Virus record (IMG/VR): IMGVR_UViG_3300032288_006150
Span: 1 to 53,279 of that record
Origin: a virus
Taxonomy: Duplodnaviria > Caudoviricetes
Reading direction: 5' to 3' (one strand)
DNA: 53,279 bases
Part shown: one piece after another, positions 10,779-52,186 of the stretch
Numbering within the stretch: the stretch's first letter is position 1
How the letters are laid out: each line of letters opens with the position of its first letter
The notes under the pieces: generated by a model
Seen by the model: the letters and a program-made list of their open reading frames with translations, nothing else
Told to the model about the DNA's origin: nothing
Databases searched by the model: none
Translations under genes and position numbers: made by a program

Positions 10779-10826
10779 TTTAATACTTTACTTTAGGTCG
10801 TGTAACTAAAGAATAGTCTTAAACAC

Positions 10827-11820: not shown

Positions 11821-11850
11821 GAAAGAGCGGAGTCGTGTTTCCGCCCTTTC
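11821..11850 (-). promoter_or_regulatory. Intergenic hairpin displaying ACACGAC in the loop
   Basis: GAAAGGGCGGA-AACACGAC-TCCGCTCTTTC on the minus strand. Confidence 0.6.
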
Positions 11851-12113: not shown

Positions 12114-12145
12114 AGTCGTGTATTTTATATTCTTTATGACTTATT

Positions 12146-12775
12146 TTACTCTCCCGAGTTTGCTCTAAGCAATCCACAAATTTGGCATTCTTCTTCACCG
12201 TCATTATTTGCATCTCCCCAAACGTGTTGACAATAACGATGTGGAAAATATTCATCGATTGTTCCGTCTCCGTCATAGTCTAAACCATCTGCTAAGCCGT
12301 CACCGTCTTCGTCGATTTCAACTCCTTTCTTTTTGTCATTAACCGGCTCGGTGGATTCCACTACTTCAGCATCATAAGTTGCTGGTTTATCCTTGGAATT
12401 GGAAATAGCTTGTGAAAAATCTGCAGGGATCAATGGAGTTGGTGGTACGGGATTATTAGGCATGTCTGCAGTATTAGACAAAGAAGTTCCGTCTTCCTCA
12501 TCCATTTTCTGAACTAACATTTTATCTTTATCCGTATCACTGAACCAATAATCGATAATTTTTCCATAACTCCCAATAAATGCTCCAAGTAAAAGAAGCA
12601 GAAGTTCTTTCCACTCTCCGGCTATTTCAGATTTATTTAAAATAGCGAAAAACATTCCCCCTATAATTAACATAAATCCTCCTAATACCAACGCAGTAAT
12701 ATACCATCTGCGTTTCATCATTGCGTTTAAAAGATCCTTAAATCCACTTGGTGTTTGTTGATTGTTATTCATCAT
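12146..12775 (-). CDS. Two-TM protein with DxDGDG Ca-binding repeats and a Cys/His cluster
   Basis: DEDGDG...DYDGDG; CQHVW...CQIC. Confidence 0.7.
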   Translation of the reverse strand: MMNNNQQTPSGFKDLLNAMMKRRWYITALVLGGFMLIIGGMFFAILNKSEIAGEWKELLLLLLGAFIGSYGKIIDYWFSDTDKDKMLVQKMDEEDGTSLSNTADMPNNPVPPTPLIPADFSQAISNSKDKPATYDAEVVESTEPVNDKKKGVEIDEDGDGLADGLDYDGDGTIDEYFPHRYCQHVWGDANNDGEEECQICGLLRANSGE

Positions 12776-12787
12776 TCAATTTTAATA

Positions 12788-13108
12788 TTACCACTGAGCT
12801 GGTTTTTCTTTAAATTCATCGCCATCTTTCTTTTTAGTTGCAGGTGCTGGTTTAGCTGGTTCCGCAGCTTTCTCTTTAATGATAACAGTTTTACCACCAC
12901 CTGCAGCTTGTTGAGCTTGCTGGTTAGAGTTAGTGATGTTGATTACAGGGGCTGGTGCTGGAGCTGGAGCTGCTTCTTTGTCTCCTCCACCTAATAGTGT
13001 TGAGACCCAAACGCCTCCTGCTGTTACAGCTGTTGTAATAACCCCGATGATAGTTTTCTTTAGACCTGACCAGGTTCCGTCGTTGTGGTCTTGTGTTTCT
13101 TCTGACAT
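12788..13108 (-). CDS. Single-TM Pro/Ala-rich protein
   Basis: TM segment then APAPAPAP. Confidence 0.7.
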   Translation of the reverse strand: MSEETQDHNDGTWSGLKKTIIGVITTAVTAGGVWVSTLLGGGDKEAAPAPAPAPVINITNSNQQAQQAAGGGKTVIIKEKAAEPAKPAPATKKKDGDEFKEKPAQW

Positions 13109-13130
13109 TTTTTAAAAATTATATTCAATG

Positions 13131-13271
13131 TTCAGAAAAGACCCTCAAAACTTAGAATTCGCTTTTGGAATATTTCGAAAGACGTTACTTACCCGAATCC
13201 TTTCAAGAATCAAGACGGGCTTGTCGTGTTTTTCTTTCGAACAGTATGAGGATTTTTTCATCTTATATATC
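13131..13271 (-). ncRNA. Putative structured 5' leader RNA, copy 1
   Basis: AAAAUCCUCAUAC...GAAAGA...CACGACAA...UGAGGG-UUUUCUGAA shared with 19957-20031; P1 and P2 pairing. Confidence 0.55.
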
Positions 13272-13275
13272 TTTT

Positions 13276-14646
13276 TTACAGCATAATTCTGGATCCGATC
13301 ATGAAATTGTGCAATATTTTTGTTCCTGGCTGGGTACCCCCTGAAAATCTATAATTAAGATTTAACCCAAATCTTTGAGTTAATTTATAATCATACGAGA
13401 AACCAGACATGAATCCAAATTGTCGATTAACTATCGTTTGATTGGCGGAAGGGTTCCATGCTATGGGTGAGCTAGTAATAAATACCTGGGGAGAGATGGA
13501 CACCTTTCGATTTACTTGATAAACTTTCGTCCAAAATCCAATAGATGATACTGACATGGAATAATCATATTTGTTCCCATTCTTTAAGAATAAACTAACC
13601 ACTCCGATGTTATATCCATATGTTCCCATCTTAGGATCTGGTTTAATGTACGTATAACCCTGCATAAGCATATAATTTCCCTGTAGGTAAGCTGCAGTAA
13701 AGGAATAAGAATTAATGCTGCTTAAAGCTCCCTTTTTAAAATTCATCTTAGTGTAACCACCGTTCAAAGCAAATTGATCGAATGTTGTCCAGATCATAGA
13801 GGTTAAGCCCCAGCTTTCTGCTCCTGTCATAGAGGATTTGCTTATTCCGGTAGAAATCATAGCTGAATATCTTCCGTCCTTATTTTCAGTTACTGCAAGA
13901 TCTGACGCAACCAAAGTGGGATTGCTCATAGATTGTCTCTTCTTCTTTTCTTCCTCCTTCTTTTTCTTTTCCTCTTCTTTTTTCTTTTCCTCCTCTTTCT
14001 TCTTTTCCTCCTTGCTCTCTGATTTTTCTTCCTTATTTTCCGATTTTTTTTCTTCTTGTTTGCTCTCGGATTTTTCTTCACTCTTACTTTCAGATTTGGA
14101 TTCAGATTTTTGCTCGGAAGAAGTGCTGCTCTCTTTCTTTGTTTCCCCGCCAGAGCTGGATCCTCCAGAACTAGAACTACTTGAACCTCCTGAAGACTGT
14201 GAACCCCCGCTGGAACTAGCAGGGGTAGAAGAAGCTGCTGATGAACTTGCAGAGGTGCTAGCAGACGAAGATGCTGCAGAAGACGCAGAACTACTCGCAG
14301 CGCTACTCGCTGCAGAAGATGCAGCTTGTGAAGCTGCCGCGGAAGCCGCTTGTGAAACCGTTTGTTGAACTGTTTGTTGAACTATCGTTGTTGCCGGACA
14401 AGGTCTGGAGTTATAATCAGCATACACCTGATTCAGCCATGCCTGCACAGTTCCGTTATTAACTTCAGCAGTGGTAAAAGTCTTTATTTGATTATAAAAA
14501 GCAACTACAACCATTCCGTTTCCCATTGGGGTGGTTACAACTGTTTTTATTTCTCCAGTACACTTATCTACGTAGGTTTGTGTAAATATTTGTGCTTTTG
14601 CTTTGACTGAAAAAATCAACAAGAGGATTATTAATAATCTCTTCAT
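13276..14646 (-). CDS. Exported protein: Cys-pair N-domain, Ser/Ala and Glu/Lys linker, C-terminal outer-membrane beta-barrel
   Basis: Signal peptide AKA-Q; low-complexity linker; alternating Gly/aromatic strands ending NFMIGSRIML. Confidence 0.7.
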   Translation of the reverse strand: MKRLLIILLLIFSVKAKAQIFTQTYVDKCTGEIKTVVTTPMGNGMVVVAFYNQIKTFTTAEVNNGTVQAWLNQVYADYNSRPCPATTIVQQTVQQTVSQAASAAASQAASSAASSAASSSASSAASSSASTSASSSAASSTPASSSGGSQSSGGSSSSSSGGSSSGGETKKESSTSSEQKSESKSESKSEEKSESKQEEKKSENKEEKSESKEEKKKEEEKKKEEEKKKKEEEKKKRQSMSNPTLVASDLAVTENKDGRYSAMISTGISKSSMTGAESWGLTSMIWTTFDQFALNGGYTKMNFKKGALSSINSYSFTAAYLQGNYMLMQGYTYIKPDPKMGTYGYNIGVVSLFLKNGNKYDYSMSVSSIGFWTKVYQVNRKVSISPQVFITSSPIAWNPSANQTIVNRQFGFMSGFSYDYKLTQRFGLNLNYRFSGGTQPGTKILHNFMIGSRIML

Positions 14647-14678
14647 TTTTGTCGTGTGCCGTATTTTTATTTTTGGTT

Positions 14679-15047
14679 TTACAGTTTGTTAAAATCTGTA
14701 ATACCAAGTTGATTTCCTTTCGAATCAAATAAGCCTATTCTGTAAGCAGAAGAGGGTAAAGCTGACGTGTAAACTTTTAAAATGTTATCACCAGCATTAA
14801 CTCTCATTACCTCTTTAGAAACTGTTTTATTAGAAATGTCAAAAATTCTAATTGTAACATCCTGTGCAATGTCGCTTTTAACATTCATAGACACCTCTGT
14901 AGTTACGAACGGGTTTTCTAATTTTATACCAACAGTAGAATTTATTTGTAAAGAATTTGGAACTGTTGGCGGTTCAATTACATTAAAAGGATCTTTTGTA
15001 CATCCTATAAGAGATGTAACAATTAAAAGGGAGATTAGCTTTTTCAT
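14679..15047 (-). CDS. Lipoprotein consisting of a T9SS-CTD-like beta-sandwich
   Basis: Lipobox LIGC; ENPF...IRIFDISNKTV...SALPSSAYRI. Confidence 0.65.
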   Translation of the reverse strand: MKKLISLLIVTSLIGCTKDPFNVIEPPTVPNSLQINSTVGIKLENPFVTTEVSMNVKSDIAQDVTIRIFDISNKTVSKEVMRVNAGDNILKVYTSALPSSAYRIGLFDSKGNQLGITDFNKL

Positions 15048-15052
15048 TTTTT

Positions 15053-15403
15053 TTATTTTATTATTATTTTGGTTCTCTTGACTTCGTTCTTATTTAAATC
15101 GTCTAAGATCAAATATAAAACTCCGACAGGAAGAGATTTTGTGTATATTTTAACAGAATTGTTTCCTGTTATCAAATTTATTTTTTCTTTACTTAAGATT
15201 TGTCCGGTATTATAATCTTGTATCTTTAATATAAAAGATCCCTCTTTTTCCATGTTAAAAGATAGTTGATCTGAATCGGAAACTGAAACTTCAGAAACCG
15301 AAAAAATATCCACTACCGGTTTGGGTAAGGGCTCGATATTCTCTTTATAACAAGAAGTTAATGAAAGAGAAAAAATTAATAATACAATCCTAATAAATTT
15401 CAT
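15053..15403 (-). CDS. Lipoprotein, T9SS-CTD-like, paralogue of 14679-15047
   Basis: Lipobox LTSC; GNNSVKIYTKSLPVGVLYLIL...KIIIK. Confidence 0.65.
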   Translation of the reverse strand: MKFIRIVLLIFSLSLTSCYKENIEPLPKPVVDIFSVSEVSVSDSDQLSFNMEKEGSFILKIQDYNTGQILSKEKINLITGNNSVKIYTKSLPVGVLYLILDDLNKNEVKRTKIIIK

Positions 15404-17682
15404 TATTGAACTTTTACTTTTAATTGTTTAGAATCAGTTCCTATTGTCTCTATGCTTTCAACAGAAACTAATCCAAGTATATTTTTTAAATCCGATTTTG
15501 ATTTAAATACTATTTTATAACCTAGATTACTTACAGGATTACCGTTGGTGTTTAGTGTTCCTACATTTATTAAGGAAGACTCTTTTCTTGAAAAATTTAT
15601 ATCATTTTTGTTGGTGAATTCCGTTTTGTTGTGATCCAAAATTGAATTATCAAATTTCACAATAAATTGAGTTGCACCAATCTGATTTTGACCAGGATCT
15701 ACAGATATTGTAACTTCTACCATTCCATCTTTTATCTCCATCCAGATATCAGCAATAACATCACCAGTAGAGGAATTTGTTCTAACAGCCATCGACTGTA
15801 TTCCGATTTCTTGTTTGTTACTTAAAGAATTAGGTTGGGAAACCCCAGTAGGTAATGCTGAATGAGAAAGATTTACATCGCCTTTCCACGTAACTGCAAC
15901 ATTGTAAGAGTTTAATTGATTATCAACTATAGATGGTAAATAATAAGATCCGGAGGTAAATCTATAGTCCTGCCAATTATTTGATGCTATAGCATCATAA
16001 TCTGATTTTTTTATCAGTTTAATCATGCTAGTTAACTCGTTACTGCTGTTCCAGATTGTTGATTGTCCAAGTAAATGTTGAAGAAGAATGAAACAATCTT
16101 GCTCATTAAAAGCTCCACTTGAATCAACGTCAGCATTTGCAAACTGTACAGGGGTTGTAAACCAAACGTTGGAATTTCCAAATATCCCATTATCAGACAA
16201 TTGCTTAAATGCTAAATAAACATCTCCGACAGTTACAATACTACTATACAGTCCAGAATAACTAGATCCGTAATATTTAATATCAGAGAAATGTGGTTTA
16301 AAAATTTGATTCTGAGTGAATCCAATGCTACAAGAGAATGCCCAGTTATTATATCCAGCATTTCTTATGTTAGCATTGAAAGATGAAGAACCATCTGTTA
16401 CTTTAGTTAGAGTCGATGGAATAATGTAATGAGCCCAATATGTTGAGGTTTGTTGATATGTTACTGGTCCGTCATAACAATCTAATATGGAAACTCTTTT
16501 TATAGTTGATGGGGAAACACTGCCAAAAGTTGATAAATCAATATAGAGGGTAGTAACACCATTAGAAATATTAACATAAGAATACTCAACCTGTCCTGCA
16601 GAAATTGAACTCTTATATCCATCATTTATTTTATTTTGATCAATATTAGGAGTCATATCAATCTTTCCTAGCGAGTTAAGAGCAGCATAATCACCTGATC
16701 CCTGAACGATTCCCTGGTGGTCAGTAAACATCTTTGTTCTAAATAATGTCTCGTTCACATTAGCACCAAAATCATAAACAAATTGAGCTCTCAATACATT
16801 TCCGTTTGAATGGTTAACTGAATTAGAATAGAATTCTGTAAATGTCTGATCATCGGGATTTGTCCAGGTTCCAAATTCAACAACATACGGATTTGAAAAA
16901 TTGGCTGGTAAATCGTTCCACTGCGAGCCATTCCATTTTGTTACCGCGTAATCTTCGTTACCGCTATTGTTTGGTTCCCCGCCCGCCCAGTTATTATATT
17001 GGCCAACAACATTTCCTGCCGTTTGTCCATTCGAAGTTTTAATGAGAGTTCCGTTTTCAGGTCCAGCATCGATTCTCCATTGACCTTCAACAACTTCATC
17101 AGTTAGAGCAAACCATATTTGATTTTGGGGTACATTATTATAAATAAAATTATCTTCATCTGATGATGTGATTGTTACCAAATATCCTTGTTGACCCTTG
17201 AATGTTTGCTGTGCAGAAAGGGATTTAGCATTTGGATATGTTGCACCTGCTGATATTGGTCTATAAAAGTGACCATTTGATGGATTGTAAAAATATCCGG
17301 TCGGATTCACGGTTGCAGATACTGATATCTGAACATTACCCGAAGTTGCAGTAGTGTTTATTTTTAATGTTGCTAGAGCGGCATTTATGTTAGACATTGT
17401 TCCCGTAAAAGCTAAACGGGTTTTGTTACCACTTAAAGTGTATCCACTTGCAGGGGTTAATCCTGTTGTGGTTGTCATATAAAACGTTGTTCCTGAAGGA
17501 GAGACTGGTAATCCAATAGCACAAAGTAAAATTGAAGTAGAATTAAATCCGCCAAGAGAAAATCCGCTCGCATCTTGTGCAGAAGTACTTAATGCAAAGG
17601 ATTTAGCTTCTGGTGCATTGACTTGTTGTCCATACACACCAGAAGCTAAAAGTAGTAATATTGATACGAATAGATTTCTCAT
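15403..17682 (-). CDS. Exported protein with C-type lectin, dockerin-like and cohesin-like domains
   Basis: YLVTITS.DEDNFI, NWAGGEPNN, WNDL; ADVDSSGAFNEQD; IGATQFIVKFDNSIL. Confidence 0.75.
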   Translation of the reverse strand: MRNLFVSILLLLASGVYGQQVNAPEAKSFALSTSAQDASGFSLGGFNSTSILLCAIGLPVSPSGTTFYMTTTTGLTPASGYTLSGNKTRLAFTGTMSNINAALATLKINTTATSGNVQISVSATVNPTGYFYNPSNGHFYRPISAGATYPNAKSLSAQQTFKGQQGYLVTITSSDEDNFIYNNVPQNQIWFALTDEVVEGQWRIDAGPENGTLIKTSNGQTAGNVVGQYNNWAGGEPNNSGNEDYAVTKWNGSQWNDLPANFSNPYVVEFGTWTNPDDQTFTEFYSNSVNHSNGNVLRAQFVYDFGANVNETLFRTKMFTDHQGIVQGSGDYAALNSLGKIDMTPNIDQNKINDGYKSSISAGQVEYSYVNISNGVTTLYIDLSTFGSVSPSTIKRVSILDCYDGPVTYQQTSTYWAHYIIPSTLTKVTDGSSSFNANIRNAGYNNWAFSCSIGFTQNQIFKPHFSDIKYYGSSYSGLYSSIVTVGDVYLAFKQLSDNGIFGNSNVWFTTPVQFANADVDSSGAFNEQDCFILLQHLLGQSTIWNSSNELTSMIKLIKKSDYDAIASNNWQDYRFTSGSYYLPSIVDNQLNSYNVAVTWKGDVNLSHSALPTGVSQPNSLSNKQEIGIQSMAVRTNSSTGDVIADIWMEIKDGMVEVTISVDPGQNQIGATQFIVKFDNSILDHNKTEFTNKNDINFSRKESSLINVGTLNTNGNPVSNLGYKIVFKSKSDLKNILGLVSVESIETIGTDSKQLKVKVQ

Positions 17683-17687
17683 TCATC

Positions 17688-19352
17688 TTAGTCTATAATT
17701 AAATCTATTTTGTTTCCTGCTGCATCAACAGCATCGGATAAAACAAAGTAGAATAATCCTGCTGTGTTAGTTAAACTAACCTTAGGTGTGAAAATTAACT
17801 TATAAGGTGTTCCTGTTTTAATTCTAGCTGTCTTTAATTGATCGATTGAACCAAAGGTTAATCTACCATTATCGTGGGTTGAAAAGTTTGTAATGGTTGA
17901 CCCTGCATCAAATACAACATTATCTAAAGTTAATTTTGAATTGTCATAGTTCATAATAACTTCCAGACCTGCTAATCCTTCTTTTGTTAGTGTTGTAGTT
18001 AAAACTACTTTTCCGTTTTCTAGTTTGGAAGATACACTCAGGGTTGCTTGTTCATTAGCTTTCGCTTGATATAAACCAACCATCTGGGATGCTTCTGTTG
18101 TTATGTTCCCAAAAGAAGCAGTAACGTTTCTGTTTGCTGAGTTAGTAACTATGCCGTTTTGAATATTCTGTGCAATAACTGCAGGATCTGTTGAGTGTGA
18201 CCAGTTTAAATCTCCACCCCAAGCAAATACAGCATTTGCGGTTTGGTTGTTAGCTGTAACGAGAACTCTGTATTTGGGGGTTCCATCTAACCAGCTTTGG
18301 TTTAATAATCCACTATACCATCTAACTTGAGTAGCTGTCGAAGTTGGGATGAACGCAGTTGCTGAAACGTCCTGTCCCATAACATGAGCGAAAAGACTGT
18401 ATGAGTCTGACTCGTTAAACACATTATCATTCTTTGTTACGTTACCAACTTTTCTTTCAAAAGTTGGATATGTGAAATAGGTAGGATTTCCGGAAATATC
18501 AGTTTGTGAGTGTCCTAAAAAAGCCTTGTAAGCATCAGACACAGTAATAACGTTGTTCATCCAAGCTTTCTGGAATGATGCTCCAACAAAAACACCAACG
18601 GAGTCTCCGATTTTTAACTGGGTGAAAGTTGCCTCTCCTGCAGCATCTAGTGGTGCGGTGTAAAGAGGTTGCTGTGACCAATCTATGTCTCCGGTTCCGT
18701 CATTTTTCAATCTCATAAGTTGAACATTATGATCGGTAATTGGATATCCATTAGGAAATGCAACTTTAACTTTAAATAAAGAAGATCCACCCGTTACATT
18801 TCCAAGTGAAACGGCATTACCAGATGTTGTGATTGGAGCTATAAAAGCACCGGCAGCATCATTAGAATATGAAAGATTTAGCTGATGTATGTTAGTATAA
18901 TCAGTGTGGTCTTTAACAATAAATTTCTGAGTAGCAAAATCCCCGCTAAGAGAGGCATCCGCTCTTTGAATTGATAATTGGCCAACATTCCAATCACCAT
19001 TAACAGCGTAGTTCCATGGAGTTAATTGATACTGCTCATAAAGTGAAGTGGACGCTTTAGTTGCATTTGGAGTAAACTTATAGTTGTTCCACTCAGTATT
19101 ATATGTTTGTACCTGATTGCCTTGGGTAAAAGCAGTAGTTCCTGCTAACGGAAGCAAAGCCTTATTATTATATTGATATCTTAACCAAAAATATCTCGGA
19201 GTAGTAGTTCCCCTGTCAATATTGTACTTAACTGTAAGGGTATCTCCAACTCTATATGGTCCTGCTGGAGTGACAGTTCTATTTACGGTCAACTGTGCAA
19301 AGACTGACGTGGCCGCCAAAATTAGTGTGGCCAGGGTAATTAGCTTTTTCAT
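17688..19352 (-). CDS. Exported protein with cohesin-like and dockerin-like domains
   Basis: Signal peptide VFA-Q; VGDTLTV..; ITVSDAY...FNESDSY; LAGLEVIMNYDNSKL; start moved to MKKLIT. Confidence 0.7.
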   Translation of the reverse strand: MKKLITLATLILAATSVFAQLTVNRTVTPAGPYRVGDTLTVKYNIDRGTTTPRYFWLRYQYNNKALLPLAGTTAFTQGNQVQTYNTEWNNYKFTPNATKASTSLYEQYQLTPWNYAVNGDWNVGQLSIQRADASLSGDFATQKFIVKDHTDYTNIHQLNLSYSNDAAGAFIAPITTSGNAVSLGNVTGGSSLFKVKVAFPNGYPITDHNVQLMRLKNDGTGDIDWSQQPLYTAPLDAAGEATFTQLKIGDSVGVFVGASFQKAWMNNVITVSDAYKAFLGHSQTDISGNPTYFTYPTFERKVGNVTKNDNVFNESDSYSLFAHVMGQDVSATAFIPTSTATQVRWYSGLLNQSWLDGTPKYRVLVTANNQTANAVFAWGGDLNWSHSTDPAVIAQNIQNGIVTNSANRNVTASFGNITTEASQMVGLYQAKANEQATLSVSSKLENGKVVLTTTLTKEGLAGLEVIMNYDNSKLTLDNVVFDAGSTITNFSTHDNGRLTFGSIDQLKTARIKTGTPYKLIFTPKVSLTNTAGLFYFVLSDAVDAAGNKIDLIID

Positions 19353-19882
19353 TGTGTTAATAATTGTTTTATTGCGTTTCCACATACCTTTTTAATAACG
19401 GTAGAGACAGATTGCTGATTCATCTTACCACCTTCGTCAACTATCAAGGTTGACACGGAAATTTCGGAGGCTTTCTCTGTTATCAAGCACTCTTTTATTT
19501 TTTTCCCCTTATTATCAAGAAGATATGCCTTTATTTTTAAAACTGTTTCTGCATTATTCTTATGAAACACTGCCACACTAGATTTGGTGGTCTCAACGTC
19601 AAAGAAAAGAAGATCTATGTTGATTTTATAATCAAATTTGGTCTCGTCTTCTACAATTTCAAAATCATTTTCCTGCAAATATTCCTCTAGAAGATTTCTA
19701 AAACCGAATGTTAATGGTCTAGATCCAGCTAAGCTTCCTATAACGATTTTGTTGTTTATGTCACCAATCAGAACATACTTGCTTTGGCCAATAGCCTGAT
19801 TAAACGAAAGCACCAAAAGGATGCTAAAAATTACCAATATTTTTTGTGGAATCTTGCTTATAATTTTTTCCAGTAGCTTCAT
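19349..19882 (-). CDS. Exported protein, possible CsgG/LpoB-like fold
   Basis: Signal peptide; FGFRNLLEEYLQE and STVIKK echo motifs of 10827-11555. Confidence 0.55.
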   Translation of the reverse strand: MKLLEKIISKIPQKILVIFSILLVLSFNQAIGQSKYVLIGDINNKIVIGSLAGSRPLTFGFRNLLEEYLQENDFEIVEDETKFDYKINIDLLFFDVETTKSSVAVFHKNNAETVLKIKAYLLDNKGKKIKECLITEKASEISVSTLIVDEGGKMNQQSVSTVIKKVCGNAIKQLLTQ

Positions 19883-19956
19883 AATTTTAAGTTATGTTGG
19901 AAAAAATCATCACAGCCCATGATCTGGGCATCAATTAAACGGGTCTTCCGAAATCA

Positions 19957-20031
19957 TTCAGAAAACCCTCAGAATTGTCGTGCAAAGATATAACTCTTTC
20001 ACGGTATGAGGATTTTTCGATATTATATATC
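19957..20031 (-). ncRNA. Putative structured 5' leader RNA, copy 2
   Basis: GAAAAAUCCUCA pairs with UGAGGGUUUUC; CGUGAAAGA pairs with UCUUUGCACG; follows ATATATAA. Confidence 0.55.
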
Positions 20032-20080
20032 TAGCATCCTCCCCGGAAATCAATGCAGTAAAAGAAACTTAAAAAAAATT

Positions 20081-20494
20081 TTACAGAGATATTTCGAACC
20101 GATTTCTCATCTCATTTATCTTAGAATCTGGAACACCGTGCACATTTTTACCCCCGTGACGATTCTCAATAATTAGAGAAACAACCTTGTAGCAGTATTT
20201 ATTGGCTAGTTTGAAATATTCTTCCATCTCCCATTCTCTGGTAAAAGTATTAGAGACAATTATTTCTGGATAAAATTGTGGATTTTTTTCGTTGTCGAGC
20301 ATAAAGGATTCAACCTTATCCCTACAATATTTATGTGCTTCTTTTAATTTGGATGGATCAAAATTGTAATTCCCTTCAGCATCATAAAAAAATTGATCAG
20401 CTTCACATATAACAAAGCTAGACCAAATTAAATTAGCAAAAGAAGATTTTCCAGATCCTGGAAGTCCTCTCAGAAGAACCAAAACTTTTCCCAT
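20081..20494 (-). CDS. P-loop kinase (AAA_33/polynucleotide kinase-like)
   Basis: RGLPGSGKS, EADQFF, VSNTF, NVHGVP. Confidence 0.85.
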   Translation of the reverse strand: MGKVLVLLRGLPGSGKSSFANLIWSSFVICEADQFFYDAEGNYNFDPSKLKEAHKYCRDKVESFMLDNEKNPQFYPEIIVSNTFTREWEMEEYFKLANKYCYKVVSLIIENRHGGKNVHGVPDSKINEMRNRFEISL

Positions 20495-20514
20495 TGCCTA
20501 AATTTTTATTTAGA

Positions 20515-23580: not shown

Positions 23581-24753
23581 TTATATATCATCATCAAAGA
23601 TCCCCGATGAGATCAGATCAGAAACATTTTGGAGTGTTTGATTAAATTCTTTAGGTTCTTCGATGGATTTTTTGATTTGATCTATTACCTTTTTTCTAAT
23701 ATGAACTGGGATACGATCATAGATTTTGGTTATCCCGATAGGATCATCAGTATACATTTTTATAATAAATTCAGAAACCTCCTTATAATCTAGAAAATGA
23801 CTAAGATTTTCTTGGTCACTGTAATCAAGCAAATCCCAAGATAAAGCAAGAGAAACCTTATAGGGTATTCCTTTAACAACCTCTTTAGCAATAATATAAA
23901 AGGACTTATCTGATATTTTGTTTGATTGAATAATAACATCTTCTATATCAACTGAAGGAAGCCCGTCTAACGAGATAAGAAAATTATTGGAAGCATTAAA
24001 TCCCCCACCGACAAATTCAGAACATCCAGAAAGAGATTCAAGTTTATTGTTTCTACAATCGAATCCTCCTGATACTTTTTTTGGGGATCCTTCCAGCGAA
24101 TCTATCAAATTATTAGAACAACAAAAATTTCCTCCTACAGAATTAGGAGATCCTTTAAGATCCCTAAGATAATTTTGAGAGCAACTATAATTCTTCAAAA
24201 CATTTTTAGGACCATTTAATAAGGACTCCAGATTATTATTCTCGCATATAAAAGATCCTCCAATTCCAACAGGAGAACCCGACAAAGAATTTAGTTTATT
24301 GGTAGATACCCTATAATCTCCTCCTACATGTGTAGGACCATTTTCTAAATTTTTTAATTCATTGAAATCCAAAAGCAGATTTCCATAAATTGTATCAGGA
24401 CATCCTAATAGACTTTCTATCTGATTGTACATACAATCAAGATTTGATCCAATATAAGATGGACAAAAATCTAGGGATTTTAGATTATTGGAATAACATT
24501 TGAAAGATCCCCCGATAGATTTGGGGCTATGCTCAAGAGAAATCAAATCGTTATTTGAGCAATTGAAGTCACCCGAAACTGATTCTATTTTGATCTTGGG
24601 TAAAAATCCGGTGTTTAATTTTTTGGACGATTTTAAAAAAAAGGAGCAGTCTAAATTACCGTCGATCGAGATAGATCCGTCGGAATTAAAGCTCCAGGTT
24701 CCGGTAACACATTTATTAAGAAAATCTTCAAAATCTTTCTTTATTTTAGACAT
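23581..24753 (-). CDS. Leucine-rich-repeat-like protein (22-aa repeats)
   Basis: About nine copies of VGGxFxCxxNxLxSLxGxP. Confidence 0.8.
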   Translation of the reverse strand: MSKIKKDFEDFLNKCVTGTWSFNSDGSISIDGNLDCSFFLKSSKKLNTGFLPKIKIESVSGDFNCSNNDLISLEHSPKSIGGSFKCYSNNLKSLDFCPSYIGSNLDCMYNQIESLLGCPDTIYGNLLLDFNELKNLENGPTHVGGDYRVSTNKLNSLSGSPVGIGGSFICENNNLESLLNGPKNVLKNYSCSQNYLRDLKGSPNSVGGNFCCSNNLIDSLEGSPKKVSGGFDCRNNKLESLSGCSEFVGGGFNASNNFLISLDGLPSVDIEDVIIQSNKISDKSFYIIAKEVVKGIPYKVSLALSWDLLDYSDQENLSHFLDYKEVSEFIIKMYTDDPIGITKIYDRIPVHIRKKVIDQIKKSIEEPKEFNQTLQNVSDLISSGIFDDDI

Positions 24754-29700: not shown

Positions 29701-29733
29701 ATCCCTTATATATCAATAACGCGAATACGCGTG

Positions 29734-29915: not shown

Positions 29916-31112
29916 TTAATTACCCTTTGCTGGAAACCGGGTCCACCCATTTGTCCAAGCTGGAGTACTTAGTTCCGGTATTACTGAATCTATTTCTTTG
30001 TTACCTTTGCCTAATGATAATGTTTTTAATTGATCGCTGGTTAGTATCGTTGTTGCCCTGCTTATAAAATTAAGAGAAGGCGAAAATGCTCCTACTGAAT
30101 TGTTTTCAAATACAGAAATACCATCCTTAACAAACTGAGCAGTTTCGTTGCTTTCCAAACTTAGTCCTCCTTTCATCCATCCCCAGATTACGCTATTCTT
30201 GATCGTGAATTGTGTTGCTCTTCTAAATCTTAAACCCAAATTATGGTTAGCTAGTGCTGAAGCGTTATTAGGACCAACTAAAATCATATTTTCTAATTTA
30301 GGATGGGTGAAAGGCTGGGCAGATGAACCTGTTCCATCATTGTCACATTCTACCCCATTTCCAGCATCACCGTTATCTACAAATTGTGGATCTCTTCTTG
30401 ATACACCATTTGTAATAGTTCCAGTATATCCAAAATCGAAATCGAAATCATCATCTGCAGTTGAAAATGCGTATATGTTTTTAGCATTTACTGTTCCTCC
30501 AAAAAATTCAAAAGCATCATCATTAGCGTAAATAGTTTGAACATTCTCGATGATTGTTCCATTACCAACACCACCTAATGTTAATGCGTTAATTTCAGAG
30601 TTTGGCATTGCTGCAATACCAGCATATTCAATCCTTACATATTTTAGAATACCACTATTATCTAAATCATTAGTACCACCATACGGTCTACCAATCCCAC
30701 CCTCGATAGTCGGTTCTGAGGTTCTGTTGGTTTTTGCCCTTCCCAATATTACAATCCCACCCCAATCACCAGGGGCTCTTTCTCCGGCTGCTCTACCAGA
30801 TGTAAATATTATTGGTTTTGATACAGTTCCCTCCGCAATTATTTGTGCACCCCTTTCGATACACAATGCTCCCTTTTCAGCTATATCAGAAACAATTGTT
30901 GTACCAGGCTGAATAATAAGTTTAGCACCATCTGTTACATAAACATATCCTTTTAATGTCCAAACTTTATCTGACGTTAAAGTAGTGGTAGTGTTGATGT
31001 TTCCAGTTAATGTCGTTGTTAATGGGATGTTTATAGGAGCATCATCTCCACCCAATTCTTTTTGGCAACTAAATAGTCCAAAAATTAAAATACCTGCTAA
31101 TAGCTTTTTCAT
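29916..31112 (-). CDS. Beta-helix lipoprotein partner of the TonB-dependent receptor
   Basis: Lipobox LFSC; PIIFTS, GDWGGIVILG, DNSGILKYVRIEYAG, DDAFEFFGG. Confidence 0.85.
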   Translation of the reverse strand: MKKLLAGILIFGLFSCQKELGGDDAPINIPLTTTLTGNINTTTTLTSDKVWTLKGYVYVTDGAKLIIQPGTTIVSDIAEKGALCIERGAQIIAEGTVSKPIIFTSGRAAGERAPGDWGGIVILGRAKTNRTSEPTIEGGIGRPYGGTNDLDNSGILKYVRIEYAGIAAMPNSEINALTLGGVGNGTIIENVQTIYANDDAFEFFGGTVNAKNIYAFSTADDDFDFDFGYTGTITNGVSRRDPQFVDNGDAGNGVECDNDGTGSSAQPFTHPKLENMILVGPNNASALANHNLGLRFRRATQFTIKNSVIWGWMKGGLSLESNETAQFVKDGISVFENNSVGAFSPSLNFISRATTILTSDQLKTLSLGKGNKEIDSVIPELSTPAWTNGWTRFPAKGN

Positions 31113-33589
31113 AGTGTTAAGTTTAATATTAGGGAAATCGTTTGTTCGTTATTTGTTTTTATTAAATTTCTATTTTGTAATTTTTGATAATAGATCGATG
31201 ATTGTCCAAATACATCGCCTATTGCCATTTTAATTTCTCCGTTTTTGATTTTACGTAAAAAAGTTATGTCTAATACATCTCTACTATTTTCAAAGATGTC
31301 TGGATATCCTTGAAATCCAACAGCAGATATTCTATCTCCTACTCTATTGTAAGTTATGTTAAGTGTATTTTTTTCTTTGTGGAGATTAAATCCTCCATTT
31401 AATACATAATTTGATTGACCCTGTAATTGCCTTTTAGATCCATTTACATTTACTTCAGAATTCATTATTGAAGTGTTGGTGTACAGATCTAACCAATCTG
31501 TTACCTTTTTACGGAATTCTAATTCAACCCCATAAAGAATAGCATTATCAGGATTTGTGTAGGTTAATAATAAATTGGACGGAACTGAACCATCTGCTAC
31601 TATCTGTTCGATAGGCTTAATGAATTTTTTACCAAATAACGATACGGAAATGTTCTCTCCTGCCTTCTGATAAAATTCCCATTTTAAATCTAAGTTATAG
31701 ATATCCGATTTTTCCAATTTTGAATTACCTAATATCTGTGCATTTCTTACAAAATCATAATAAGCAAAATTAGCAACCTCTCTAAATTCAGGTCTTGCTA
31801 ATGTTTTACTCAGTGAAAATCTATATTTTACTTTATCTAAATTATATGAAAGGTTTAATGACGGAAGAAGGTCTAAATACTCTCTGTCTACGTTTACTTT
31901 TTGTCCGCTAAAATCTGCGGTATTAACATTGAATAGGTTGTACTCCCCTCTTAAACCTGTGTTTAATTTTAACTTGCCCCATTCATTTTCATACATTGAG
32001 TAAACTGATCCTAAATCAAAATCTGCAGTGTACCTGTCTGTATTATTTGTTATTTCATCCAGCATATCAGTTGAAAGATATCTGAAGATTCTTGCGTTAA
32101 ATCCCCTAATCTTTTTTAGATAACTTCCCCCAATCTTAATATTACCAAAATCTTTGTTTATGTTACCATTAAAACTGTTTTCGTCCATTACACTCCAAAA
32201 ACGATACGTGTCTCTCCATGCAATAGAATATGGTTCGTTGACACCTAATGATTTTGTGATCGGGTTTACCCTATAATCGGGTTGTTCTCTGAATATAAAA
32301 TTATATCCCAAATTAAAATCCCAATTCTTGAGCTTCCCATCAAATTGGGAATTGATAACAACATTATTAATATGATTAGAAGAATTGCTTAAAACGTTTT
32401 GTACATTATCAAAGTTATTACCATTTCGTGTTAGATAGCTATCATCCTTTTGGTAGTTTAGTAGGGTTTTCCAGCTATATCGATTTTCTCCTAAATAAGT
32501 TAAATTTAATAAACCGCTCGTGGAAAATCTTTTCGTGTATAGAATCTCTTTATAATCATAAGCTAACTCAGTTGATGATTGATAGTCTTTCCTTTCGATC
32601 TTATTTAAGGTGAAAGAATTTCTTACGGTTGAACTGAATAGAGAATTAAATTTACCCTTAGTATATCCAAACGAAAGACCTCCGCTTAAATTTGGAATTG
32701 ACTGAAAAATATTTTCCTGGGGATTACCAAATTGTTTAGTGAATAATCTTTTATCACCGTTGCTACTGATACGATATTTGTATGTGGATGGAAAGGTTGA
32801 TGGAAACTCTGTAGATTTAACTGTCTTAAAATCTCTGAATGTAGAAACTGATCCAGCACCACTTCCTAAAGAGATATTAAAAAAATTATCTGAAACCTCC
32901 TTTGTTGTAATCTGAACCAAACCACCACTCCAATCCCCTGGTAAATTTGCTGATGCTGATTTAGCAACTATGATATTATCAATCAATCCGGTTGGAATTA
33001 TATCAAAAGAAAAAGCCCTCCTATCTGGCTCAGTTGATGGAAGTATAGTTTTGTTTAAAAAAGCAGAATTATATCGATCTGCTAATCCCCTTACTAACAC
33101 AAACTTATCATTCTGTATTGTTACCCCGCTTACTCTTTTAAGGGCATCGCCAACGTTTCTATCTGGAGTTTTTTTAATGAATTCTATTGATACACCATCA
33201 GATACAACATTGCTATTTCTAACTGATCTAATTATCGAAACATCTGTTGTTTTTTGAGGAATAGCTCTAACTACAACCTCATTCAATCCCGTTACATTCT
33301 CCTCGAGCAAAACATTAAATAAAGTATCGGATGTAAAATTTACGGTCTTAATTAAATCCTTGTATCCAACAAAAGTTGCTTTAATATCATATTTTCCTGA
33401 TGGAATTTGAATCTCATAGTTTCCAAATTCGTTAGAAATTGCAGAAAAGGATTTTTGATTTGCATCCTTAAATATGATATGGACGAAATATAATTTTTCG
33501 GTAGGTGACTCTGTTTTACCTGATATTTTAATTTGAGAAAAGGATAGAAGGGGTAATAAAACAAATAATAATAGAATGGATTTTTTCAT
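31109..33589 (-). CDS. TonB-dependent outer-membrane receptor
   Basis: CarboxypepD-like N-domain, LNEVVV, DALKRVSGV..VRGL..RYN plug, LPSLNL, ARPEFRE. Confidence 0.92.
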   Translation of the reverse strand: MKKSILLLFVLLPLLSFSQIKISGKTESPTEKLYFVHIIFKDANQKSFSAISNEFGNYEIQIPSGKYDIKATFVGYKDLIKTVNFTSDTLFNVLLEENVTGLNEVVVRAIPQKTTDVSIIRSVRNSNVVSDGVSIEFIKKTPDRNVGDALKRVSGVTIQNDKFVLVRGLADRYNSAFLNKTILPSTEPDRRAFSFDIIPTGLIDNIIVAKSASANLPGDWSGGLVQITTKEVSDNFFNISLGSGAGSVSTFRDFKTVKSTEFPSTFPSTYKYRISSNGDKRLFTKQFGNPQENIFQSIPNLSGGLSFGYTKGKFNSLFSSTVRNSFTLNKIERKDYQSSTELAYDYKEILYTKRFSTSGLLNLTYLGENRYSWKTLLNYQKDDSYLTRNGNNFDNVQNVLSNSSNHINNVVINSQFDGKLKNWDFNLGYNFIFREQPDYRVNPITKSLGVNEPYSIAWRDTYRFWSVMDENSFNGNINKDFGNIKIGGSYLKKIRGFNARIFRYLSTDMLDEITNNTDRYTADFDLGSVYSMYENEWGKLKLNTGLRGEYNLFNVNTADFSGQKVNVDREYLDLLPSLNLSYNLDKVKYRFSLSKTLARPEFREVANFAYYDFVRNAQILGNSKLEKSDIYNLDLKWEFYQKAGENISVSLFGKKFIKPIEQIVADGSVPSNLLLTYTNPDNAILYGVELEFRKKVTDWLDLYTNTSIMNSEVNVNGSKRQLQGQSNYVLNGGFNLHKEKNTLNITYNRVGDRISAVGFQGYPDIFENSRDVLDITFLRKIKNGEIKMAIGDVFGQSSIYYQKLQNRNLIKTNNEQTISLILNLTL

Positions 33590-35751: not shown

Positions 35752-36741
35752 TTATATATCTTGCTTAAATGGACCTATTGTTTTACACATAATGATAAGA
35801 CCATCTCTTTTAGAGACAAGAACCGAGGTTATTTCGGAAACATAATCTCTATATCCAATTTCATCCGTTCCTCTCTCTGATATTATCTTGGTGCCAACAT
35901 CAAATACTTTGAAACTAGGAAGTCCTCCAATAGGGGGCTTAAATTCCATTCTAATCCCTCCAAAACTATCACGATTTGATGCTAATTGAAAATCCTTTAT
36001 CTCTTTTGTTACTTTTTGTCCATCCTTATTAAGATATGAAATTTTATTTCCTGTTTTAATACCTATTTGGAATTCTGGTCTAAGTTTATTAAAAAGTTCA
36101 GGATTCCTCGTTACCGTAATTTCAGACCTAGTATTCTCTTTATATCTCTCTGGGTCATCCAGATCTATCATCTTTATTTTTGGGGATACTGCTATATCAT
36201 TTCCGTCTTTGTCAGTCTCCTCGGCATTAACAATTCTGTAGCTTCTAAGATTTTTCTTTGCAGATTGATGAATCATATCACGCCCAGCTGTAGCGAGCAT
36301 TTCCTCTTTCGGGATAGGATTTTGGCATCCTTCGCATCTTCTAGGAAATAACATCAAAGTATAGGTTACGTCACCGTGTGAAACGGCTCCATAAACAGAT
36401 CCAGAATAGGTTTCCCTTACAGTCTCCTCTTTTGGAACAGAAAGAATTGGATAATATAAGATATCACCTTTTTTTAAAACTATATCTCCAAAATGGAAAA
36501 CTGTAGTGTATGCATAATCTATCCTAGGGTATTTGTATTTAAGAATATTTACAGAGCATTCTTTTAAGTGTTCCTCGATTTTTTTCCTAGCGAATGATAA
36601 ATCCTCTTCTGATAACCCATCTACCCCACCAATAAACTGGAAATTCTTTCTCAAGTCCATCCTGCTCTTGAAGTGGTCATGATGCTTGTTTTCCCACAGC
36701 AACGAAGATTCAAAAAGTTTAAAGCTTAAAAGAAATTTCAT
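35752..36741 (-). CDS. Hypothetical protein with MKFLLSFKLFE leader
   Basis: ORF track; AATATATAA upstream. Confidence 0.75.
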   Translation of the reverse strand: MKFLLSFKLFESSLLWENKHHDHFKSRMDLRKNFQFIGGVDGLSEEDLSFARKKIEEHLKECSVNILKYKYPRIDYAYTTVFHFGDIVLKKGDILYYPILSVPKEETVRETYSGSVYGAVSHGDVTYTLMLFPRRCEGCQNPIPKEEMLATAGRDMIHQSAKKNLRSYRIVNAEETDKDGNDIAVSPKIKMIDLDDPERYKENTRSEITVTRNPELFNKLRPEFQIGIKTGNKISYLNKDGQKVTKEIKDFQLASNRDSFGGIRMEFKPPIGGLPSFKVFDVGTKIISERGTDEIGYRDYVSEITSVLVSKRDGLIIMCKTIGPFKQDI

Positions 36742-41069: not shown

Positions 41070-41095
41070 CTGGTATTATTTATTTTATATATCAA

Positions 41096-43480: not shown

Positions 43481-43516
43481 GATTTTCTTATTTCCCTTAT
43501 ATATCATTAGAACCAC

Positions 43517-47440: not shown

Positions 47441-48022
47441 TTATATATCAGCGGGTTCCTCTGTGTCTTCACTCCACTCTGGATTGAGATATAATTGGTT
47501 CAAGTTGCCATCCACAGAAGCCTTCATCATCGAAGCAACCGTGCGGGATTGTTCGAAATGATCCATGTACCATTCAATCGGTGGATTCTCTTCCTGGATT
47601 TGATGCCCTAACTCCGTGTAGCCTAAAAGGCCAGCAATAAAATCATCAAAAGCGATCTGAGTGTCATTCACCTCGGCATAGTCCATTCCATAGCGTTCGT
47701 AATCCTCCTGAGCTAAGGGATCAACATCATCTCGGTCCTCCACCGAATCAAAATAGTCATCGTAATCCGAAAAAGTGACAAGATTGGCCCAAGCGGGTTC
47801 ATTCTGTTGTAACAATTCAGGAAAGGTCACCAAGGAGCTGAGATGTTGCCAGATCAAATTATCCAGATCGATCTCCGATTCCTGCAAAGGGGCATTATTG
47901 TGTCCGCATTTGTGACACATATAAGGATCATGGCCACCCTGGTCCTTGCGCCAGATCCAACCACACACTGAGCAGTGAATACTGTCACCCTCAAATTCTT
48001 CAAATAGTTGCAGGTATTTCAT
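47441..48022 (-). CDS. Zinc-ribbon acidic protein with MKYLQLFEEF leader
   Basis: CSVCGWIW...DPYMCHKCG. Confidence 0.75.
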   Translation of the reverse strand: MKYLQLFEEFEGDSIHCSVCGWIWRKDQGGHDPYMCHKCGHNNAPLQESEIDLDNLIWQHLSSLVTFPELLQQNEPAWANLVTFSDYDDYFDSVEDRDDVDPLAQEDYERYGMDYAEVNDTQIAFDDFIAGLLGYTELGHQIQEENPPIEWYMDHFEQSRTVASMMKASVDGNLNQLYLNPEWSEDTEEPADI

Positions 48023-48420: not shown

Positions 48421-48511
48421 GGCTTTTTTATTTCCTTTATATATCTTTGTTCATCTGAGCCAAAACGCGGATCGAGGCCCTTGAACCGTCATAGTGACAT
48501 GGGAGGTGCTC

Positions 48512-49856: not shown

Positions 49857-49860
49857 GGAA

Positions 49861-49894
49861 CAAATATAAGCAAGAAGAACGAGAAAGGAAAATG
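49861..49894 (-). promoter_or_regulatory. CATTT-N8-CG-N11-TATATTTG promoter
   Basis: Exact consensus, 4 nt before the ATG at 49856. Confidence 0.7.
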
Positions 49895-49984
49895 TAATAC
49901 AAGAAGGATCTGAATATGGGAATCTGAACCGAACAGCCCGGAAGAATATGTTTAAAATATCCGAATGGATAGGCTAGTCGAATC

Positions 49985-50083
49985 GCGTACGCGCATTGGT
50001 TAGAGCTTGTATACGTGCGCGGGCTCGCACGTGTTTCTTATATAGTATATGATTTAGCCATGAGCGTACGCGCATTGCTAGAG
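49985..50083. repeat. Direct repeat GCGTACGCGCATTG(g/c)..AGAG, two copies
   Basis: Copies start at 49985 and 50064. Confidence 0.7.
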
Positions 50084-50395
50084 GCTAATTACTCTGCGAA
50101 AGAAAAACGAGAAGGAAGAAGGGACCCCCTGGACTAAATTCCTATCTATATTTCATCTTATCCACTCAAGAGTCCCTCCCCTAAAAAACATTAAAAACAA
50201 GCCCTATACGGCCCCCCTTTTTAGCCCCCTATTTTAGGGCCCTTTTTAGGGGGATTCCCCCAAGGGTCCCCTCCCCTTTTTTACCCCCTCTACGGTCCCC
50301 CTATTTTAGGCCTGTTTTACCCCCTCTTTTTAGCCCCTTATTTAACCCCCTCCCGGATCCCCTTTTTACTAGGTATTTACTAAATGAATTTGCCC

Positions 50396-50692
50396 GTGGG
50401 GGTTCCCCCGCAAGTGAGATCTCGCATTTACCTTTTTTTCTCCTAGTGAGGGTTCCCCCACCAGAAGAAGCAAAAACCCCAAGAAAACCCCAAATTCCTA
50501 TTTTTCCCTACTTCCCCGTGAGGGTTCCCCCACGAGAGAGAAATTGGATTTACCTTTTTTTCTCCTAGTGAGGGTTCCCCCGCGGAAAAAACCAAAAAAC
50601 AAAAAAAAACTATTTTTACTACTTTTCCGTGGAGGTGCCCTCGCAGGGATCGTCCTTTTTTAGAAAATTAGAACGTGGTGAAGTCACCCCAC
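50396..50692. repeat. Cluster of 16-bp imperfect palindromes GTGAGGGTTCCCCC(A/G)C
   Basis: Copies at 50396, 50446, 50518, 50568; degenerate copies at 50629 and 50675. Confidence 0.85.
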
Positions 50693-50722
50693 AAAAAAAC
50701 TCCCATCTTTTCAGATGAGAGT
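50690..50722 (-). terminator. Intrinsic terminator with TTTTTTTGTG tail
   Basis: ACTCTCATCTGAAAAGATGGGAGTTTTTTTGTG. Confidence 0.75.
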
Positions 50723-50746
50723 CTCGTTACACTATAAACACTCAAT

Positions 50747-50980
50747 TTAATTCAGTGCGAAATGCTGCAGATAACCTTGCAACATATCTATGCTACTACG
50801 TAGCATGCGGATTCGAGAAATGGTCTTATGTCTTTCGTCCTCAGAGTTAAAGCTCATATGCATTAGCTTGTTTCTTTCTCTTTCTAATTGGGTCTCTAGA
50901 TCTTGTAAGCTAGGATTGTTTAAGAATTTAGGAGTGACATCCCTTTCCATCATCATGTCTTGCGTTTGTATGTTTTCCAT
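50747..50980 (-). CDS. Hypothetical coiled-coil protein
   Basis: ORF track. Confidence 0.6.
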   Translation of the reverse strand: MENIQTQDMMMERDVTPKFLNNPSLQDLETQLERERNKLMHMSFNSEDERHKTISRIRMLRSSIDMLQGYLQHFALN

Positions 50981-51231
50981 ATCGCTAAATTATAAATTAA
51001 TCTTCGTAATGTGAAATGTTTTATTCCGGTTCTGGAAGTTTGTTCCTGCTCTCTTAGGATTCTTCTGACGATGGAACGATCTCTAGCTGACAGGCTATTG
51101 AACCAAGTTTGGGAGCAAGTGACCAATGGAGTGGCTGAATCCTTATCATAGCCACCTCTTTGATAAGCAGCGAACATATTAAAGGAATCGGTATCAATAT
51201 AAGAAGCAACGGAGGGTAGATGAATTAACAT
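50953..51231 (-). CDS. Hypothetical protein
   Basis: ORF track; promoter at 51257-51290. Confidence 0.6.
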   Translation of the reverse strand: MLIHLPSVASYIDTDSFNMFAAYQRGGYDKDSATPLVTCSQTWFNSLSARDRSIVRRILREQEQTSRTGIKHFTLRRLIYNLAIWKTYKRKT

Positions 51232-51256
51232 ATGGCTATTTGTTTTATTGCGTTAA

Positions 51257-51290
51257 TAAAATTATCAACATTTCCCGAAAAAGAGAAATG
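51257..51290 (-). promoter_or_regulatory. CATTT-N8-CG-N11-TAATTTTA promoter
   Basis: Consensus spacing. Confidence 0.6.
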
Positions 51291-51341
51291 TTCCTTAGTA
51301 AATATCCCTATGTCAACTTGGAAAGTTCCTATAGGATCTAT

Positions 51342-51357
51342 GTGAGGGTTCCCCCAC
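51342..51357. repeat. GTGAGGGTTCCCCCAC palindrome copy
   Basis: Exact match to the 50446 and 50518 copies. Confidence 0.85.
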
Positions 51358-51399
51358 CAGTGACAGATTTCTTGCCACGGTTTGTGCTTAACCTATCCC

Positions 51400-51436: not shown

Positions 51437-51456
51437 GGTTTAAAGTGATTTATCTA

Positions 51457-51900: not shown

Positions 51901-51921
51901 GTCGTGTGTTTGTTTAGATTG

Positions 51922-52168: not shown

Positions 52169-52186
52169 GTGTTTGTGTTTAGAATG

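Follow-up and report, generated by a model that had tools for sequence, protein, structure and literature searches.

A lineage-specific family of structured leader RNAs, two per genome, in uncultivated aquatic jumbo phages

Two related leaders in a phage fragment

The IMG/VR virus record IMGVR_UViG_3300032288_006150 (53,279 bases, analysed at full length and called the window below; estimated completeness 16%) carries nearly all its genes on the minus strand. Related contigs reach 335 kb, and we read the window as a fragment of an uncultivated jumbo phage. Its host is probably a member of the Bacteroidota, to judge from domain matches and from A-rich start contexts without Shine-Dalgarno sequences. 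Two intergenic regions, 13271..13131 and 20031..19957, had been proposed from the bare sequence (the sequence-only reading) to hold copies of one structured leader RNA at the head of the two halves of an envelope operon. Comparison with relatives upholds the core of this proposal: a conserved structured RNA of the minus strand, in two paralogous copies, each with a promoter-like box directly before it and a gene cluster behind, whose homologues keep a closing helix (P1) and a hairpin (P2). Copy 1 precedes a gene for 106 amino acids (aa) and copy 2 a 177-aa gene. The features are as follows; MFE stands for minimum free energy, and R1 is a covariance model described below.

Copy 1
13263..13271, minus strand: promoter-like GATATATAA box, starting 4 nt past the stop codon of the 456-aa gene and ending 3 nt before G 13259
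13135..13259, minus strand: structured domain of 125 nt (MFE fold; R1 match of 92.8 bits, E 3e-15)
13259..13247 with 13147..13135, minus strand: P1
13241..13233 with 13182..13174, minus strand: P2, its loop containing ACACGAC (13229..13223) and an inner hairpin (13220..13191)
13109..13134, minus strand: linker to the ATG (13108) of the 106-aa gene
13126..13119, minus strand: GAATATAA box within the linker
12146..13108, minus strand: first genes behind copy 1, 106 and 209 aa

Copy 2
20023..20031, minus strand: promoter-like GATATATAA box, 4 nt ahead of the first paired G (20018)
19900..20018, minus strand: structured domain of 119 nt (full-leader MFE fold, pair counts on 7 orthologues, RNAalifold)
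20018..20011 with 19908..19901, minus strand: P1a
20009..20005 with 19914..19910, minus strand: P1b
20003..19979, minus strand: P2
19977..19932, minus strand: P3
19941..19968, minus strand: inner hairpin of P3, 12 base pairs followed by a U-rich tail, scanned as terminator-like
19929..19915, minus strand: P5
19883..19899, minus strand: A/U-rich linker to the ATG (19882) of the 177-aa gene
13276..19882, minus strand: gene cluster behind copy 2, 177, 565, 759 (C-type lectin domain), 116, 122 and 456 aa (open reading frames (ORFs), Pfam, PHROGs)

Both regions read as had been described. They share, in order, GATATATAA, a gap of 3-4 nt, GAAAAA(A)TCCTCATAC(T/C)GT, GAAAGA, CACGACAA and TGAGGGT(C)TTTTCTGAA. 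The 13-mer AAAATCCTCATAC has exactly two occurrences in the 53,279 bases, on the minus strand in either case (13244-13256 and 20004-20016); the remaining 50 matches to it in the window have 2-3 mismatches. The sharing of motifs between the two sites is real and not due to chance. One piece needs qualification: CACGACAA is present as sequence in both copies, but it lies in the P2 loop of copy 1 and on the 3' side of P2 in copy 2, and is therefore not one aligned structural position.

A leader pair kept in close relatives

We read 15 leaders from 8 genomes directly, and the family grows to at least 23 distinct sequences once metagenome contigs are added. An exact 15-mer scan of viral contigs returned 93 stretches, nearly all of them chance matches, and one related contig with the full motif set in both copies. 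A search with the 177-aa protein led to five further genomes at 81-91% identity, each with a leader of 162-173 nt from box to ATG. Pattern search revealed a second copy in all five records, 7.7-8.1 kb off and always between the 456-aa and 106-aa homologues. A third group of contigs (L206 and others) has leaders at the same two positions: one between a small ATPase gene and the 177-aa gene, the other between the 456-aa and 106-aa genes.

Model R1 was built from the 8 copy-1-type sequences with P1 alone, and it recovers all 7 copy-2-type leaders at E <= 0.009. In each of five genomes (G002, G004, G006, G010 and G011) it gives exactly two same-strand matches at E < 0.01, about 7-8 kb apart; G002 measures 245 kb and is 86% complete. 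In three distant large relatives, G007, G008 and G009 (two of them complete; L128 and L129 lie outside this search), the best E is only 0.46-0.95. The leader is also absent at 78 of 80 loci around homologues of the 209-aa protein. None precedes the 177-aa homologue in the 7 loci with 57-67% identity to the 565-aa protein, where a terminator and an A/T-rich box stand instead; more distant relatives have the 122-aa gene directly adjoining the 106-aa gene. With two copies kept in close relatives and none in distant ones, the leader pair is an innovation of a sub-clade, retained there.

The two paralogues change in concert within one genome: where one has CAUAC, as in the window and G011 lineages, so has the other, and the remaining six of the genomes read have CAUUC in both. 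The leader core is the same in the window and in L104 bar one loop insertion, and the flanking proteins are just 85-87% identical, a comparison that suggests purifying selection on the core.

The common fold

All 15 leaders begin, 3-4 nt past GATATATAA, with a G, followed by A5-7 and UCCUCAU(U/A)CNGU. From that G to the C behind a U5-7 run the domain measures 119-141 nt in 15 of 15. P1 joins its first ~13 nt to the U-rich segment, and the helix of A-run and U-run, from nt 1-5, appears in 13 of 15 independent MFE folds. In the other two, L108 and L109, the U-run pairs with an A-run ahead of the ATG and the inner part of the closing helix is retained. The P2 hairpin follows the conserved junction in all 15 MFE folds, and 1-3 further hairpins fill the remainder.

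When the 15 leaders are aligned jointly with MAFFT, the 3' strands of P2 and the two runs, A and U, end up misplaced; P1 was therefore counted on model-fitted alignments. Over 23 sequences, 88.5% of 296 cells are paired, which 0 of 500 shuffles reach, and a slid partner gives 45-73%. The best argument for P1 is the joint change in length of the two runs: they measure 5/5, 6/6 or 7/7 in 13 of 15 leaders, and such changes separate close relatives (L191 from L192/L198, L111 from window copy 1, L197 from L195). Moreover, U-A and U-G alternate at two P1 pairs. Wobble pairs are thus tolerated, which fits an RNA of the minus strand and not duplex DNA.

The copy-2 type can be assessed on a plain MAFFT alignment of 7 sequences. 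Its 38 pairs are 85.9% paired, against 42-61% for a slid partner, and two-sided changes occur in 6 pairs (8 cells). The paired fraction, the number of two-sided cells and the covariation score (3 of 5 measures) are reached by 0 of 500 shuffles. Independently, RNAalifold finds P2, P3, P5 and a hairpin ahead of the ATG. Covariation among homologues, which the sequence-only reading had named as a check on P1 and P2, is visible as two-sided changes in the copy-2 type and little in P1, within a set of few and closely related sequences.

Folding energies were compared with shuffles for the two window stretches only. Copy 1 (13262..13125) folds at -32 kcal/mol with a z-score of -1.8, and 10 of 200 shuffles fold equally well. 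The stretch first proposed for copy 2 (20022..19950) reaches -19.5 kcal/mol with a z-score of -3.6, equalled by 0 of 200 shuffles.

Corrected extent and pairing of copy 2

Copy 2 is longer than had been proposed: its structured domain runs over 20018..19900 and the leader extends to the ATG at 19882. The stretches named for P1 and P2 in the two copies do fold as described, but in the full-length RNA the P1 partner assigned to copy 2, a proximal UGAGGG segment, is wrong. There the 5' end is paired with 19914..19901, which lies some 60 nt beyond that segment. The proximal partner, 19971..19962, is mostly the 5' strand of the P3 hairpin (19968..19941). Full-length copy 2 folds at -46.4 kcal/mol with the distal P1, versus -32.1 kcal/mol with the proximal one enforced. 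Pair 15-127 is U-A in five genomes and A-U in the window and L104, a compensatory change; together with the comparison with five orthologues, it favours the distal partner as ancestral. The P3 hairpin itself differs by 3 substitutions between the window and L104, all of which keep the pairing, and it matches P3 of L105-L109 in position.

The covariance model prefers the proximal pairing in window copy 2. It is possible that this form arises in the nascent RNA, before the 3' strand of P3 is made, as a predicted kinetic alternative. In L105-L109 the U-run can pair alternatively with the A-run immediately ahead of the ATG (P6).

A metagenome variant near-identical to window copy 2 (L314, 6905-6965) changes CACGAC to CATGAC, which leaves a G-U pair in P2; what is conserved in copy 2 therefore seems to be the helix rather than the word ACACGAC.

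No known class

The sequence-only reading had been unable to place the element in a familiar class, and Rfam 15 likewise gives 0 matches in the whole window at gathering thresholds. At E <= 10, region 12900-20300 has 3 chance-level matches, of which only that to a miRNA model (24 bits, gathering threshold 63) reaches into copy 2, overlapping its tail at 19852-19918. Searched at E <= 1, 9 loci of relatives yield 7 matches, 0 of them at leader coordinates. No short G+C-rich terminator hairpin (loop 3-8) with a U-tract stands at the domain ends 13135 and 19900, and the scan marks only P3 of copy 2 (19968..19941). A conserved ligand-binding core common to all members is likewise missing, as the interior helices differ. 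In the literature, the core words AAAATCCTCAT and AAAAUCCUCAU and the reverse complement match, among the papers listed and judged by title, primers or unrelated work. At the level of listings and abstracts no report of such an element was found, and supplements might list RNA motifs. The element is a new RNA family of a familiar kind.

The promoter-like box

All 9 exact copies of the GATATATAA box in the window lie on the minus (coding) strand and at a gene boundary, in many cases with an ATG 3-16 nt further on. The box shows a strand bias in relatives too, and a phage-specific promoter is a reasonable reading of it; its assignment to a 'late' class is a guess. G002 has two ORFs with a sigma-70 region 2 domain. 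It also carries 27 GATATATAA boxes, only 2 of which are followed by the leader, so the leader is not a general part of the box. Seven boxes of the window lie outside the two leaders:

23581-23589, minus strand: GATATATAA box
29706-29714, minus strand: GATATATAA box
35752-35760, minus strand: GATATATAA box
41085-41093, minus strand: GATATATAA box
43497-43505, minus strand: GATATATAA box
47441-47449, minus strand: GATATATAA box
48437-48445, minus strand: GATATATAA box

Several of these seven overlap a stop codon, with the next ATG 3-16 nt away. Should these boxes be promoters, the 5' untranslated regions (UTRs) would be very short.

The word found in the P2 loop of copy 1, ACACGAC, occurs 8 times in the window versus 1.2 expected, always on the coding strand and in 7 of 8 cases outside ORFs (minus strand, recorded at 10797-10803, 11832-11838, 12115-12121, 13223-13229, 14651-14657, 51901-51907 and 53215-53221). 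At 11832 and 10797 it sits in hairpin loops of 8-9 nt, both kept in a relative; four occurrences lie 0-4 nt before start codons, and the hairpin loops of many family leaders also contain it. ACACGAC may be bound by a protein or may signal a start site. A genome-wide role of ACACGA was rejected: AACACGA is not commoner than its reversed control in five relatives.

Genes behind the leaders

Signal-peptide-like N-termini can be seen by eye in the 177-, 565-, 759-, 116-, 122- and 456-aa products and in several products behind copy 1, and lipobox-like motifs in three of these. Both features make the 'envelope' label plausible, and the downstream proteins are plausibly of a secreted or envelope type. 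The two clusters are possibly halves of one operon; the terminator scan found no strong terminator between copy 2 and copy 1 (19882..13276). The 209-aa protein is conserved in 515 viral stretches. In a collection of annotated phages, neither the DNA of 12700-20500 nor the 456-aa protein has a match, and the lectin domain of the 759-aa protein matches just 4 records, all of Flavobacterium phages.

The 456-aa gene (13276-14646; Ser-rich in its middle and beta-rich in its C-terminal part) is found at differing places in L097, L099, L100 and L102. The 565- and 759-aa proteins have a common C-terminal region with ~24% identity.

Possible mechanism and alternatives

Altogether, we read the element as a family of structured 5' leader RNAs restricted to one lineage, a sub-clade of uncultivated aquatic jumbo phages whose genomes have two paralogues each. 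As to function we tentatively favour, at somewhat short of an even chance, a cis-acting leader in which the 5' end of the mRNA is buried and a factor finds a constant surface to recognise. Transcription would start 3-4 nt past the GATATATAA box, at the conserved G. The first ~13 nt (G, A5-7, UCCUCA) would then pair ~105-130 nt downstream with the segment ending in U5-7 C, and P1 so formed would close a compact domain with P2 and 1-3 further hairpins, from which an A-rich unpaired linker of 17-45 nt would reach the start codon. Such a long helix burying the 5' end could shield the mRNA from 5'-end-dependent decay. The invariant 5' strand, UCAU(U/A)CNGU and P2 would be displayed to a trans-acting factor setting the output of both operons, and the A-rich translation start region would remain open while P1 is formed.

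Stabilising stem-loops near the 5' end are familiar in bacterial and phage mRNAs, for example in the ompA 5' UTR. The leader would resemble them in having a helix within a few nt of its predicted 5' end and in working in cis on envelope or structural genes whose products are needed in abundance. Contrary to them, its helix closes a multi-hairpin domain of 119-141 nt, has an invariant 5' strand and comes as a paralogue pair, and its 5' end is a predicted one.

Several points weigh against the cis-acting leader. All 22 sequencing runs listed are of DNA, and the start site and '5'-terminal' character therefore follow from the constant 3-4-nt spacing to the box alone. The copy 1 fold is barely better than its shuffles. 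Because its 5' strand is invariant, P1 shows weak covariation by substitution, with two-sided changes in 2 of 13 pairs, both at the ends of the runs, a number matched by 238 of 500 shuffles. RNAalifold on the 8 copy-1-type sequences gives P1 as the only consensus helix, since the interiors differ; interior helices indeed differ between paralogues and between lineages. The pairing statistics are to be read with the knowledge that related sequences can beat shuffles without any structure, and the P1 alignment, fitted to the model, is biased towards pairing. No candidate binding protein for the leader was identified. Finally, the GAATATAA box, 10-15 nt ahead of the 106-aa ATG and kept in all 8 copy-1 leaders read (G006 included), could be a second promoter, in which case the leader would not be needed for expression of the 106-aa gene. 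This box is the main unexplained point and favours a small-RNA or two-promoter reading for copy 1.

In a bolder version of the same idea, clearly less probable, the pair represents a new class of RNA switch, encoded by the phage close to its promoters, and couples both envelope operons to one trans signal, which could be a small molecule or a protein of phage or host. Binding would take place on the invariant 5' strand, and closed P1 would mark the stable, translatable and read-through state. In the open form the U-run would pair with the start region, or P3 would terminate transcription. If this switch is real, a logic like that of put or RAT elements would have arisen independently in jumbo phages of Bacteroidota, a phylum whose transcription and translation signals are unlike those of model bacteria.

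The alternative that survives best, itself unlikely, is attenuation or antitermination: the closing helix with its U-run (in copy 2, P3 with its U-rich tail) would terminate transcription unless a factor on the 5' strand prevents it, or the folded RNA would modify the polymerase that made it, as the put RNAs of phage HK022 do, and so let it read through the long operon. The 3' strand of P1, a G-rich segment followed by U5-7 C, is built like the 3' half of the phage's ordinary terminators; P3 of copy 2 is terminator-like, with 12 pairs and a U-rich tail, and the proximal pairing first proposed for copy 2 would compete with it. An invariant 5' strand opposite a variable 3' strand would also suit an anti-terminator held by a protein. 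However, the 'loop' of such a terminator would span ~100 nt, the copy-2 type has only 3 G-C-type pairs beside its U-run, and the equal lengths of A-run and U-run imply a paired U-run and not a free U-tract.

Put elements consist of two stem-loops in ~70 nt and are not at the very 5' end. The put RNAs of phage HK022, putL and putR (see PMC9378689), are likewise two related copies per genome, each downstream of a promoter, whose nascent folded RNA acts in cis on a long operon, and the two leaders behind their promoter-like boxes recall this arrangement. The likeness ends with the arrangement, as we claim none in sequence or fold, and no internal terminators were found here: antitermination would lack a strong terminator to overcome within 19882..13276. 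Nor is there a NusG-like ORF (PF02357), as a loading site for a NusG paralogue of the RfaH/UpxY type would call for, in any of the three leader-bearing genomes searched (G002, G004 and G010), and such a factor could come from the host; the sole PF02357 match is in G008, a record without the leader. The attenuators of the RAT/BglG and ANTAR types share with the leader a conserved single strand and a small hairpin beside a segment able to pair with a U-run-flanked partner, but here the competing helix spans ~110 nt, Rfam gives no match and no gene for an RNA-binding antiterminator was identified.

Distinctly less probable than attenuation is a discrete trans-acting small RNA of ~120-140 nt, with its own promoter and an end at the U-run, the downstream genes using other promoters. 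The sharp conserved limits (G behind the box, C behind the U-run, 119-141 nt) would suit it, as would the GAATATAA box between copy 1 and the 106-aa ATG. Yet copy 2 has no such box between its domain and the 177-aa ATG, the 3' end lacks a canonical terminator hairpin, and the place before the same two genes is kept in every genome.

A riboswitch, with the domain as aptamer for a ligand and with expression set by P1 or the U-run, is improbable. The leader shares with aptamers closed by P1 a multi-helix domain in a predicted 5' UTR, a conserved junction sequence past P1 and a possible alternative pairing of the 3' strand: the U-run of the copy-2 type has two possible partners, the A-run at the 5' end and the one ahead of the ATG. 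In contrast to them, its interior differs between paralogues, with helices varying in number and arrangement and no common binding core visible; its distribution is limited to one narrow phage sub-clade; and the downstream genes, without a shared metabolic theme, suggest no ligand. No Rfam riboswitch matches.

We rate a DNA-level element just as low. Here the invariant 16-20 bp past the box would be an operator or a loading site for a transcription factor, and the pairing incidental. This would explain why the 5' strand is invariant far beyond the needs of pairing while its partner varies, why only 2 of the 27 boxes in G002 have it, as for a gene-specific operator, and why one position changes jointly in both paralogues; but matched A and U runs, wobble pairs and two-sided changes in P1b, P3 and P5 would be unexpected, and the constant length of the domain unexplained.

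That a conserved upstream ORF or a functionless remnant of duplication accounts for the similarity is hardly credible: the ATG right behind the box, which in window copy 1 opens 38 codons, is missing in the other 14 of the 15 leaders, the open frames (7-48 codons) vary in frame, encode unrelated peptides and are shifted by single-base indels between close relatives, and the element is conserved over at least 8 genomes, more strongly than the genes beside it, which speaks against a neutral remnant. In this respect too the sequence-only reading stands.

Very little is known of gene regulation in uncultivated jumbo phages or of RNA-level control in phages of Bacteroidota. The leader domain is compact, sharply limited and experimentally tractable, and occurs in two copies ahead of phage proteins of the secreted or outer-membrane type. 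Phage genes for such proteins are highlighted as a class in a 2026 preprint (10.64898/2026.10.24.761521). If the stability of the mRNA or read-through is set by the element, this would reveal how such phages time or dose proteins directed at the host envelope, and would add an RNA family to the catalogues; if it is merely a stabilising 5' structure, it would be a modest, well-defined addition.

Other features of the window

Domain matches in the window comprise a SusC-type TonB-dependent receptor architecture, a carbamoyltransferase, a radical SAM protein, CHAP and lysozyme-like lysis proteins, a 2OG-Fe(II) oxygenase and a C-type lectin. The phage-encoded SusC-like receptor lies at 31109-33589 (CarboxypepD_reg, Plug, beta-barrel) and is kept at 76-80% identity in the L199/L206 group.

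Region 49857-50746 consists of 890 nt without ORFs and is packed with G/C-rich direct repeats, among them 6 copies of the GTGAGGGTTCCCCCAC family and units of the form CCCC..TTTTTAG. Immediately ahead of it the G+C content climbs to 44-45%. Possible identities of this region are an origin, a terminal or packaging region and a regulatory array. The adjoining stretch, 50747-53279, holds short ORFs of 61-147 aa, with a canonical terminator in 4 of the 6 intergenic regions listed. Copies of a GTGAGGG..CCCAC repeat and a recurring ..TCTAAAC.. box ahead of the ATG are found there as well, and the stretch looks like an early-gene region with repeated signals.

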